Below, piece after piece: positions 14,160 to 14,559 of a DNA stretch of 38,673 bases (the first letter of the stretch is position 1; every line of letters begins with the position of its first letter). The notes below the pieces were generated by a model that made no database searches, was not told where the DNA came from, and saw only the letters and a list, made by a program, of their open reading frames with translations. Source of the stretch: a virus; the IMG/VR virus record IMGVR_UViG_3300031673_006185. One strand, written 5' to 3'. Position numbers and translations under genes: made by a program.

Positions 14160-14320
14160 GTGTGGGTAAATACTTGAAACCATTAACGAAAAAAGTATAG
14201 GAGGAAGGATTTTTCTGAACAAAATATAGTAATAAATTTATATTAAGTAGGAAGCTTATTTTATTGCTTTTGTACAAATGTACTAAAAGCTGGACTAACA
14301 AAACCCTAGGGAGGTATACA
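14160..14320 (+). promoter_or_regulatory. AT-rich promoter/leader region for the small Ubl-like gene
   Basis: A 160-nt AT-rich gap with a TTGAAA...17 nt...ATAGGA candidate and a GTAC-AAAT-GTAC repeat; a strong RBS GGGAGG sits 6 nt before the ATG at 14321. Confidence 0.3.
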
Positions 14321-14503
14321 ATGTCCGATACTATGAAGAAGTACCGTTTTGGCGATGATGAGATTGAGGCTCCTAGCGACCTGAGTGCTGAAGAGGTTCG
14401 TGAGGCTTGGATGGAGGTTCATCCGGCGCTCGCTAATGCCGAGATTCTGACTGCCGTAGATGGTACCGTGGAGTACCACGTCCGCGCTGGTTCCAAGGGC
14501 TAG
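14321..14503 (+). CDS. small (60 aa) candidate ubiquitin-like / ThiS-MoaD-like beta-grasp protein ending in Gly
   Basis: MSDTMKKYRFGDDEIEAP...LSAEEVREAW...ILTAVDGTVEYHVRAGSKG; the order of elements parallels ThiS (MQILFNDQ...TVHELLEQL...VQDGDQILLFQVIAGG). Its own promoter region, a strong RBS, noticeably GC-richer codons and a strong terminator immediately downstream. Confidence 0.35.
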   Translation: MSDTMKKYRFGDDEIEAPSDLSAEEVREAWMEVHPALANAEILTAVDGTVEYHVRAGSKG

Positions 14504-14521
14504 TTCTTAGCTTACCAGCAA

Positions 14522-14559
14522 GGCCCGCCTGGAGTTCTTCCAGGCGGGCCTTTATTTTT
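14522..14559 (+). terminator. rho-independent terminator
   Basis: GGCCCGCCTGG-AGTTCTT-CCAGGCGGGCC forms an 11-bp stem, followed by TTTATTTTT. Confidence 0.8.

Follow-up and report, generated by a model that had tools for sequence, protein, structure and literature searches.

A small GC-rich phage gene as the probable modifier of a diverged, PRTRC-like ubiquitin-like conjugation cassette

The DNA analysed here, called the window below, is a stretch of 38,673 nt from a virus (IMG/VR record IMGVR_UViG_3300031673_006185). Its plus strand carries a gene for a putative ubiquitin-like protein (Ubl) of 60 aa, which is preceded by an AT-rich leader, closed by a terminator and followed by accessory and enzyme genes:

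14157 to 14320, plus strand: intergenic leader of 164 nt, AT-rich (GC about 0.32)
14309 to 14314, plus strand: Shine-Dalgarno sequence GGGAGG, 6 nt before the ATG, invariant in the metagenomic lineages L005 and L006
14321 to 14503, plus strand: putative Ubl gene, 60 aa, Prok_Ub/PRTRC_C-related (ORF, dN/dS, fold model, family links)
14520 to 14560, plus strand: intrinsic terminator, a GC-rich hairpin (14520 to 14552) with a T-run (free energy, conservation)
14575 to 14829, plus strand: 84-aa cassette protein, after the Ubl, position conserved (synteny, alignment)
14840 to 15742, plus strand: 300-aa cassette protein, in the PRTRC_F position (synteny)
15739 to 16434, plus strand: E2-like protein, Prok-E2_D/PRTRC_B-like (PF14460, TIGR03737, alignment)
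16427 to 17683, plus strand: JAB/JAMM metallopeptidase, Prok-JAB/PRTRC_A-like (PF14464, TIGR03735, alignment)
17667 to 18605, plus strand: E1-like adenylating enzyme of the ThiF family, PRTRC_ThiF-like (PF00899, TIGR03736, alignment)

The ORF of the Ubl gene runs from the ATG at 14321 to the TAG at 14503 on the plus strand, and its product ends in AGSKG; it reproduces the translation quoted in the earlier note, which had described a 60-aa product with a final Gly. Against an 85%-identical homologue in L006 the gene has a dN/dS of 0.11, and of the 29 differences 22 lie at the third position of its codons; it is therefore a true coding gene under purifying selection. Its GC content is 0.546, compared with 0.383 in the other 42 genes of the window, and its GC3 is 0.574, compared with 0.315 ± 0.042 (maximum 0.425), so that the gene, described earlier as GC-richer than its neighbours, is in fact the highest in the window by both measures. 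The GC-richest 183-nt stretch of the window starts at 14368 and reaches from within the Ubl gene through the terminator stem, and only 0.3% of the 183-nt stretches reach the GC content of the gene.

A compositional island of this kind may arise by recent horizontal gain from a GC-richer genome, in which case the high GC content and codon bias would not reflect selection for expression. However, the GC3 excess is also found in L005 and L006 (0.48 and 0.54, compared with about 0.30-0.32), where it has been kept inside AT-rich genomes across a dS to the window gene of about 0.65-0.73 (dN/dS 0.11-0.38), and the flanking ribosome-binding site (RBS) and terminator are co-conserved with the gene. Since the excess is common to these relatives despite a dS of about 0.7, the codon bias argues for selection on codons, and we regard recent transfer as improbable.

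The leader upstream of the gene (14157-14320) measures 164 nt at about 32% GC, in agreement with the AT-rich gap of 160 nt noticed before. Its alignment with L005 and L006 reveals a conserved block, AAAATATAGTAATAA (14221-14235), and an invariant block, AAACCCTAGGGAGGTA. The proposal that this region holds the gene's own promoter found no backing: a scan for sigma-70-like sites gave 27 matches with 25.5 expected, which is the chance level, and AAAATATAGTAATAA did not recur in the window, with 9 motif matches compared with 5.7 expected and an exact match only at its own site. The GGGAGG, by contrast with that proposal, lived up to its description as the best RBS of the region, as its duplex with the anti-Shine-Dalgarno sequence (−13.0 kcal/mol) ranks first among the 43 genes of the window, with three others close behind. 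The gene is also directly followed by a strong terminator, as claimed, but the stem comprises 14-15 bp and not the 11 bp given; it is followed by TATTTTT, has a free energy of −31.7 kcal/mol (z = −6.1 relative to shuffled sequences) and is kept in the diverged relatives L005 and L006, in which the loop differs. A search of positions 13900-14900 with Rfam gave no match near the gathering scores. From the RBS, the codon bias and the terminator, we infer that the Ubl may be highly expressed and abundant.

The predicted model of the Ubl gene product is a beta-grasp fold, and the C-terminal Gly is conserved, since all of 10 close homologues share G60. Both are the properties on which the earlier note had made its proposal depend. 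Across 63 units of the family, no columns other than K59 and G60 are invariant, and in the family representatives Lys-Gly ends 80 of the 84 last units and 85 of the 92 internal units. Of these 84 representatives, 32 stop exactly at the Gly, 28 run on for a single residue and 24 for at least two. Because the product of the window gene ends with AGSKG and a stop codon, it has no need of C-terminal processing.

The direct matches of the window protein to the family models are weak, with 13.9 bits on PF14454 and 14.1 bits on TIGR03738, under the curated cut-offs of 25 and 45.95. Its membership of the Prok_Ub/PRTRC_C family is supported by profile links and intermediates. A profile of the close homologues found 97 representatives and matched a 5-unit protein at an E value of 8e-47; this protein is closely similar to gp211 of Bacillus phage WH1, also of 5 units, which scores above the cut-offs of both PF14454 (94.5 bits) and TIGR03738 (73.6 bits). 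PF14454 is matched by 28 of the 63 family units. An hhalign comparison with the RefSeq-annotated PRTRC_C of Ralstonia phage Dina gave a probability of 95.6% (E value 1.2e-8) and aligned the Lys-Gly terminus of the window family to the RKG of the Dina protein, which is matched by the broad-family HMM at 2.4e-7 as well. A search of PDB sequences with the family profile returned nothing significant (best E value 0.14).

Other labels and candidates were also considered. JGI calls one homologue a phage terminase small subunit, and there is a weak match to phrog_83 (E value 0.0058) over 36 residues. However, this match is a fragment of a 246-position profile, the protein has only 60 aa and a predicted beta-grasp fold, and there are no terminase or packaging genes near the Ubl gene. 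We therefore reject the label on the grounds of predicted fold and gene context, and it is scarcely conceivable that the gene encodes a small terminase subunit. The 84-aa and 142-aa neighbours were rejected as Ubls, neither having a terminal Gly; the latter is also absent from the cassette in distant relatives. The 60-aa gp249c of Salmonella phage Arash, which adjoins a related E1, does not belong to the family according to the HMM and ends in GRSFV.

The note had placed the gene just upstream of an E1/E2/JAB operon, and this is confirmed, as the E2, JAB and E1 families all score above the Pfam cut-offs. The E2-like protein reaches 45.7 bits on PF14460 (cut-off 25) and matches TIGR03737 at an E value of 9e-11. 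Its Cys148, in the motif ICWG, is invariant in the alignment. The JAB protein reaches 30.7 bits on PF14464 (cut-off 25) and matches TIGR03735 at 6.6e-16. Its JAMM motif (E106...H153-S-H155...S163..D166) is intact, and E106, H153, H155, S163 and D166 are invariant in 7 sequences including the RefSeq PRTRC_A of Dina. The E1-like protein, with 51.5 bits on PF00899 (above the cut-off) and an E value of 2e-30 on TIGR03736, probably starts at the GTG at 17667, according to the gene calls in L002; the longest ORF begins at 17589. Its adenylation site (GxGGxG, R82-Q83, N93-K94 and V140-D141-N-N) is invariant in 5 diverged sequences, and so is Cys242 (S-C242-AE) in the alignment. On the basis of this conservation, E1 Cys242 and E2 Cys148 are candidate catalytic cysteines.

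Of the two accessory proteins, the one of 84 aa has an invariant C-terminal Phe-Ile and no family match in NCBIfam, Pfam, phrog or PADLOC, and the 300-aa protein likewise has none in NCBIfam. The hhalign probabilities are about 0 both for the 84-aa protein with the PRTRC_E of Dina and for the 300-aa protein with its PRTRC_F.

The gene order of Ubl, small gene, large gene, Prok-E2_D, JAB and ThiF-type E1 recurs in at least eight independent elements, whose carriers are the window, four metagenomic lineages (including L005, L006 and L007), the cultured Bacillus jumbo phages WH1, KLEB27-3 and Edson, and pBtic235/pBTHD789-2. Of these, pBtic235 is a jumbo prophage of a commercial biopesticide strain. 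The Ubl gene is unannotated or misannotated in the database records of the window, the Bacillus jumbo phages and pBtic235. No match to the DNA of positions 13000-20500 was found among 50,697 phage records, and scans of IMG/VR with the close-homologue profile and three further proteins gave pattern matches and no confirmed relatives. In phage Dina the order is E-C-F-B-A-ThiF, which contains the canonical C-F-B-A-ThiF. The order in the window (Ubl, the 84-aa gene, the 300-aa gene, E2, JAB, E1) fits the canonical one, the F slot by position only. The earlier note had offered the gene as an alternative Ubl candidate, and the result goes further, as the gene stands in the place of the Ubl in a Ubl-E2-JAB-E1 cassette that is itself conserved. 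We consider it likely that the gene encodes the modifier of a phage-borne Ubl-conjugation cassette of Prok_Ub, Prok-E2_D, Prok-JAB and ThiF, that is, of operon type 6d (PRTRC-like).

In type 6d, as described by Iyer, Burroughs & Aravind (2006), the Ubl is small with a conserved C-terminal Gly. The window cassette resembles it and Prok_Ub/PRTRC_C in that it begins with a small stand-alone beta-grasp Ubl with such a Gly, behind which come an accessory protein, the Prok-E2_D protein, an N-terminally extended JAB and the ThiF-type E1. There are also clear differences. The window Ubl falls under the curated cut-offs, and the PRTRC equivalog cut-offs are all missed: 58.4 compared with 101.8 for A, 41.6 compared with 131.45 for B, 14.1 compared with 45.95 for C and 105.9 compared with 144.75 for ThiF. 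Neither accessory protein has detectable homology to PRTRC_E or PRTRC_F, and the 84-aa gene is an extra insertion. The downstream His of the E2 family description (Iyer 2006) is not invariant in the window E2. No ParB family occurs among the precomputed Pfam matches of the genes within about 10 kb on either side in L001, L002, L005 and L006. The carrier is a huge phage of lytic type and not a plasmid, an ICE or a temperate phage, and multi-unit arrays of the Ubl are frequent in this branch.

These arrays are found in 51 of the 84 family representatives, in which 2-7 units of about 57 aa follow each other head to tail, each with a Lys-Gly end, separated by linkers of 1-7 residues and often followed by a short cap after the last unit. 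They also occur in the genes of the Bacillus phages, among them gp211 of WH1 and gp199 of KLEB27-3, and in HIS92_RS26235 of pBtic235; L007 has capped monomers, whereas in the window the gene codes for one unit with no cap. The arrays mirror polyubiquitin precursors: as in the eukaryotic polyubiquitin genes of the UBI4/UBB/UBC type, the units in the relatives are near-identical and head to tail, with reactive Gly ends and caps, and a peptidase is encoded alongside. The parallel differs in that the window gene is single and uncapped, the units of its relatives (about 57 aa) have linkers of 1-7 residues and end with Lys-Gly instead of Gly-Gly, and cleavage of the arrays is a prediction; beyond the fold, there is no sequence kinship with polyubiquitin. 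The array architecture is an independent line of evolutionary evidence that what counts is a free Lys-Gly terminus together with plenty of monomer, and it would represent a striking case of convergence with eukaryotes.

Sulfur carriers of the ThiS/MoaD type, which act with ThiF/MoeB, share with the window protein the beta-grasp, the terminal Gly and an activation by a ThiF-family enzyme, which for the window protein is predicted, and it could be proposed that the protein is adenylated by the E1 and thiocarboxylated for the synthesis of a cofactor or thionucleoside, with no conjugation to proteins. The parallel with ThiS/MoaD drawn in the earlier note holds for the predicted fold and the terminal Gly; it fails at the tail, which is Lys-Gly and not Gly-Gly, and there is no sign of sulfur transfer. 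The window protein has no match to the ThiS/MoaD families in the Pfam and NCBIfam models, and no ThiG, ThiH, MoaE or desulfurase family, or other sulfur-acceptor enzyme, appears in the scanned genes or precomputed Pfam lists. The E1 matches ThiF-family adenylation models only, with no rhodanese family reported, and the E1s of such operons never carry a rhodanese domain (Iyer 2006). Moreover, the cassette always includes an E2 whose Cys is invariant as well as a JAMM peptidase with an intact motif, and multi-unit precursor arrays would make little sense for a sulfur carrier. This function is very unlikely.

It is also conceivable that the Ubl is a beta-grasp assembly or structural factor, comparable to the ubiquitin-like domain of the lambda tail-assembly protein I, the partner of a JAB peptidase. 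It would then serve virion assembly after processing or through non-covalent action, with no ligation to targets. Phage Ubl-JAB pairs are known in tail assembly (Iyer 2006), the 5-unit homologue of WH1 is annotated as a virion structural protein, and virion preparations of Salmonella phage Arash were found to contain its E1 and the protein that takes the E2 slot. However, the basis of the WH1 label is not given, and the Arash proteome counts 116 structural proteins, ribonucleotide reductases included, and is thus not specific; labels of this kind were therefore discarded as evidence. The cassette always has both an E1 and an E2 whose active-site residues are intact, and these would be superfluous for a purely non-covalent role; in the window, moreover, it has no tail or capsid genes next to it. 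On balance, a role confined to assembly appears unlikely.

The window cassette shares its parts list of Ubl, E2, JAB-type deubiquitinase and E1 with the Bub operons and with both types (I and II) of Bil, the bacterial ISG15-like system (Chambers et al.; Hor et al.; Ye/Gong et al.). The Ubl of type II Bil bears a universally conserved Gly followed by at most 9 non-conserved residues, which are removed by the JAB (PMC10557695), and this arrangement parallels the capped relatives of the window Ubl. The E2 family in the window is Prok-E2_D, which is a difference from Bil and Bub, and the E1 has only a distant similarity to the BilD model (E value 0.0058). PADLOC has no defence-system model for the Ubl, the E2, the JAB or the accessory proteins, and distant similarity only for the E1. 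A further difference is that Bil and Bub are anti-phage systems of the host, whereas the window cassette is encoded by a phage.

A phage might use the cassette against such systems, its main action being to interfere with the Ubl immune pathways of the host (type II CBASS, Bil or Bub), for instance by offering a decoy substrate or by competing, and not to tag targets of the phage's own choice. The host E1/E2/JAB systems are anti-phage defences (PMC10557695), the cassette is found in lytic or inducible phages and comes on with the lytic programme in pBtic235, and the E1 is distantly similar to the Cap2 and BilD models. A decoy, however, would have no use for a complete E1-E2-JAB set of its own, and no similarity to the Bil or Bub Ubls was found; we therefore assign this use a low probability. 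It is a sub-case of the conjugation cassette, with a different target and the same chemistry.

For the Ubl as the modifier of a conjugation cassette, we infer the following course. The 60-aa beta-grasp protein would be made with the reactive Gly60 already exposed, the ThiF-type E1 (17667-18605) would adenylate Gly60, and the Ubl would then pass to a thioester on a cysteine, with E1 Cys242 and then E2 Cys148 as the candidates. In the course of infection, lysines of phage or host proteins would receive the Ubl, most likely through an isopeptide bond, and the JAMM peptidase (16427-17683) would undo the modification. In the relatives with a capped or 2-7-unit Ubl, the peptidase would also cut behind each Lys-Gly and so set the mature monomers free. 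The Ubl would be consumed stoichiometrically while the enzymes act catalytically, which would explain why the strongest RBS, the codon bias and the terminator all favour a higher output of the Ubl; the terminator would pass only a fraction of the transcripts into the enzyme genes. In pBtic235, the cassette is induced by mitomycin C (PMC9700832, supplements), and the induction is highest for the poly-Ubl gene (log2FC 5.3) and falls to 4.0 at the E1 gene (PMC9700832), these figures being fold changes only and for a distant relative. More broadly, and as a tentative proposal, it is quite possible that huge and jumbo phages run a working Ubl conjugation, with a modifier supplied either from a single optimised gene or from a 2-7-unit array cut by the JAB after Lys-Gly, in order to tag host or phage proteins during lytic growth.

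Bacterial operons of E1, E2, JAB and Ubl have recently been shown to be genuine ubiquitination-like pathways, though up to now only in the defence of the host (CBASS type II, Bil, Bub). To our knowledge, no member of the 6d/PRTRC class, by comparison, has been shown biochemically to conjugate anything. The class was predicted in 2006 (Iyer, Burroughs & Aravind), and no functional study was found in the literature on PRTRC, Prok_Ub, phage-encoded Ubl systems and phage polyubiquitin. The present analysis shows a diverged version of this class in a huge-phage genome, three cultured Bacillus jumbo phages and pBtic235. If the proposed function is true, it would be the first ubiquitination-like pathway of a virus of bacteria and the first assigned biology for the 6d/PRTRC class, and the Ubl arrays would be the bacterial-world counterpart of the polyubiquitin gene. 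The role of the class and the offensive use of Ubl tagging by phages can now be tested in culturable systems, of which Bacillus thuringiensis with pBtic235 and the cultured Bacillus jumbo phages are tractable by experiment.

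The gene for the ubiquitin-like (Ubl) protein is a real gene. It encodes the 60-aa product ending in Gly that had been read from the sequence, and it lies between a ribosome-binding site and a terminator:

14321 (ATG) to 14503 (TAG), + strand: Ubl ORF, product MSDTMKKYRFGDDEIEAPSDLSAEEVREAWMEVHPALANAEILTAVDGTVEYHVRAGSKG
14309-14314, + strand: RBS GGGAGG, best anti-Shine-Dalgarno pairing among 43 genes (-13.0 kcal/mol)
14520-14552, + strand: terminator, a GC-rich hairpin of 14-15 bp followed by TATTTTT, folding at -31.7 kcal/mol (z -6.1)

Compared with the 85%-identical homolog in L006, a metagenomic relative locus, dN/dS was 0.11, and 22 of the 29 nucleotide differences were at third positions of the Ubl frame; the 67%-identical copy in L005, another such locus, gave a dN/dS of 0.38. 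Because dN/dS and the third-position differences favor the Ubl frame, the antisense ORFs overlapping the gene are by-products. The earlier note had described a gene that is GC-richer than its neighbors, with the best RBS and a strong terminator. This description holds: GC and GC3 are 0.546 and 0.574, against 0.383 and 0.315 +/- 0.042 in the other 42 genes of the window, and the richest-GC 183-nt stretch in the window begins at 14368, inside the gene, and runs through the terminator stem. The stem is longer than the 11 bp noted, and the hairpin is the sole convincing terminator on the + strand between 12000 and 21000. Diverged relatives keep the leader, the RBS block, and the hairpin, the loop of which differs in L005. 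A promoter of its own could not be demonstrated for the gene: Sigma-70-like matches were at chance level, and the conserved upstream block, sought across the window, did not recur. The leader block AAAATATAGTAATAA (14221-14235), which L005 and L006 share, has no second copy in the window and may be a gene-specific regulatory site.

The window Ubl matched TIGR03738 (PRTRC_C, E 0.039) and PF14454 (Prok_Ub, E 0.049) below threshold. Searched with a profile, 1.84 billion representatives yielded 97 Ubl relatives, and in an alignment of 63 Ubl units (single Ubl domains), 28 of which matched PF14454, Lys59 and Gly60 were the sole invariant columns. The conserved C-terminal Gly that had been predicted is thus present, the ...GSKG end being kept in all nine close homologs (60-85% identity), one of which carries an extra Cys after the Gly. 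The five-unit protein of Bacillus phage vB_BceM_WH1 scored above both curated cutoffs (94.5 bits for PF14454, 73.6 bits for TIGR03738). The family profile also aligned to the protein that RefSeq annotates as PRTRC_C in Ralstonia phage Dina (probability 95.6%, E 1.2e-8), with the KG end of the Ubl falling on RKG67. A check of the fold gave no non-beta-grasp result, and both this and the conserved Gly favor the Ubl reading. The interpretation in the earlier note is supported and can be narrowed: the 60-aa protein belongs to a divergent, phage-borne branch of Prok_Ub/PRTRC_C and is the Ubl of the adjoining cassette itself, rather than an alternative candidate as first suggested. The family also includes fusion proteins (P0070, P0086, P0020, and P0069). 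In some fusions, a single unit without the terminal Gly precedes a CxxC...CxxC zinc-ribbon-like tail; in others, a hydrophobic N-terminal protein of ~200-250 aa, possibly membrane spanning, precedes one to three units without the KG end. These fusions may be non-conjugatable derivatives.

The rest of the cassette follows the terminator:

14575-14829: 84-aa gene, always following the Ubl in the cassette, invariant C-terminal Phe-Ile (...D-x-FI)
Downstream of the 84-aa gene: 300-aa gene
Downstream of the 300-aa gene: Prok-E2_D protein (45.7 bits)
Downstream of the E2: Prok-JAB protein (30.7 bits)
Downstream of the JAB: ThiF-family E1 (51.5 bits; PRTRC_ThiF E 2e-30)

This order, with one or more Ubl genes at its head, is common to the metagenomic relatives L001-L006 and L007, Bacillus phages WH1 and vB_BauM_KLEB27-3, and pBtic235/pBTHD789-2, a 235-kb jumbo prophage-plasmid of B. 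thuringiensis israelensis; in Bacillus phage Edson, the cassette is assigned from Ubl and E1 matches alone. No family match was found for the 84-aa protein, which could be an adaptor or a substrate. The catalytic residues, among which the two cysteines are candidates assigned from their conservation, are intact in the E2 (Cys148, within ICWG), the JAB (JAMM E106/H153/H155/S163/D166, common to the PRTRC_A annotated in phage Dina), and the E1 (GxGGxG, RQ, and VDNN, with Cys242 invariant). The longest E1 ORF, from ATG 17589, would share 95 nt with the JAB gene (17589-17683); related-contig gene calls and a five-ortholog alignment favor a start at GTG 17667.

The best-supported mechanism is that the E1 would adenylate Gly60, the Ubl would pass by thioester relay from the candidate E1 cysteine to the candidate E2 cysteine and be attached to target lysines, and the JAB would take the modifier off again or, in relatives, mature precursors. 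A counter-defence purpose within the same chemistry is plausible. It is unlikely that the Ubl serves as a sulfur carrier, since it terminates in KG instead of GG, no rhodanese or acceptor-enzyme family turned up among the genes scanned, and the cassette always includes an E2 and a JAB. If the Ubl acted only in structure or assembly, for which 'structural protein' database labels are weak evidence, the intact E1 and E2 would be left unexplained, and we consider this unlikely.

Of the 84 representatives that contain one or more complete Ubl units, 33 are single-unit proteins and 51 carry two to seven units head to tail. KG closes 85 of the 92 internal units and 80 of the 84 terminal ones. The protein stops exactly at the Gly in 32 cases, one residue past it in 28, and two or more past it in 24, this last class having caps (residues after the last Lys-Gly) of mostly 2-5 residues, a few longer and one of 58. 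Examples are as follows:

L012 9001-9900: WH1 gp211, five units each ending ...QAGTKG, with ALR linkers between units and the end QAGTKG-GLEFFKAIAPKLRKK
L013 7653-8360: KLEB27-3 gp199, head-to-tail Ubl array
L018 7641-8390: pBTHD789-2/pBtic235 array, four units
P0015: seven units

Arrays are found in P0011-P0022 (P0015 among them) and others as well, the last unit often carrying a short cap. Database labels for array genes are 'hypothetical' or 'virion structural protein'. Since nearly every internal unit retains the reactive tail and the Ubl also occurs as a single-gene copy, we think it best to read the arrays as precursors of monomers, with predicted cleavage presumably by the cassette JAB. 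JAB-mediated C-terminal trimming has been shown in the bacterial ISG15-like (Bil) system (PMC10557695), and we propose an analogous role here. This putative precursor architecture is analogous to that of polyubiquitin. We found no description of a phage Ubl array in the searchable literature, and Burroughs 2007 describes precursor cleavage as 'primarily eukaryotic'.

In L007 (1055-1944), the modifier is amplified by another route: five individual Ubl genes of 56-59 aa stand side by side, each ending in TKG plus one or two cap residues, with abutting stop and start codons (TAATATG) and the same E2-JAB-E1 set downstream. In the window clade, a single unit is served by the best RBS and by a terminator to itself, and an extreme GC3 excess is kept (0.57 in the window, 0.54 in L006, and 0.48 in L005, against ~0.30-0.32 in neighbors) at a dS of ~0.7; multi-copy lineages show little or no GC3 bias. 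We read the GC3-biased single gene and the multi-copy arrays as two routes to more modifier than enzyme; on this reading, the terminator would be an attenuator placed before the genes for the enzymes. Published RNA-seq shows that mitomycin C induces the whole cassette of pBtic235 (PMC9700832 supplements), with log2FC highest at the poly-Ubl gene (5.32) and falling to 4.0 at the E1, these being fold changes in a distant relative and not absolute levels (PMC9700832).

The window has a GC content of 38.8%, with every gene in the same strand direction, and its other genes include the following:

2152-4707: major-vault-protein-like gene, 851 aa, shoulder and repeat domains
8253-11968: AAA protein and full Lon protease
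19043-20425: NAPRTase
20689-20973: ribosomal protein S21
29299-29970: trypsin-like protease
30845-32458: GroEL (phrog_5725, E 1.6e-162)
36817-37518: M50 peptidase
Elsewhere in the window: RlaP-like nucleotidyltransferase
Elsewhere in the window: RNA ligase
Elsewhere in the window: DNA ligase

Such a load of proteostasis and translation genes is unusual for a phage. No hallmark virion genes were seen in the window. The 851-aa protein has 37% identity to genes of uncultured huge phages of 735 kb and 462 kb (LR756501, LR756503, and LR756500), which makes a huge phage the most likely identity of the element. Lon lies ~2.3 kb upstream of the Ubl, an arrangement syntenic in L001-L006. Its conservation near the Ubl in the window clade raises the idea of tag-directed proteolysis, on which we do not rely, because the stretches examined on either side of the cassettes in Bacillus phages showed no Lon.

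The window gene order mirrors operon type 6d, in which a small Ubl, its C-terminal Gly conserved, is accompanied by an alpha-helical protein, a conserved-Cys E2, a JAB that has an N-terminal domain, and an E1 (Iyer et al. 2006). It also mirrors the canonical PRTRC order C-F-B-A-ThiF of the small 39-kb phage Dina (L014), which carries a complete E-C-F-B-A-ThiF cassette. However, no PRTRC model reaches its equivalog cutoff in the window, the 300-aa protein shows no homology to PRTRC_F, nor the 84-aa protein to PRTRC_E, the E2 has no invariant His, and no ParB family hit appears within ~10 kb of the cassette. Dina PRTRC_C (gp06, L014 4001-4390) would need processing, because 62 residues extend past the RKG aligned to the Ubl terminus. 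In pBtic235-type prophage-plasmids (L018 3408-5643; L009 5767-8002), the cassette adjoins a replication/partition module of a RepA_N initiator and an actin-like ALP_N protein, which echoes the canonical ParB association. A related E1 (~30% identity) occurs in the ~180-187 kb phages Arash of Salmonella (L015 1340-4539, gp249c-gp246c) and D69 of Vibrio (L016). In Arash, genes of 251 and 412 aa and a 60-aa gene stand ahead of it; the 60-aa gene was rejected as a Ubl as it is not recognisably Prok_Ub and ends in ...GRSFV. The Arash E1 and E2-slot protein owe their 'structural' label to a virion proteome that is unspecific.

To our knowledge, the 6d-type kind, predicted computationally in 2006, has never been characterized. 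The phage-borne branch described here departs from that predicted kind through different accessory genes, a different carrier, and frequent arrays of the polyubiquitin-like sort.
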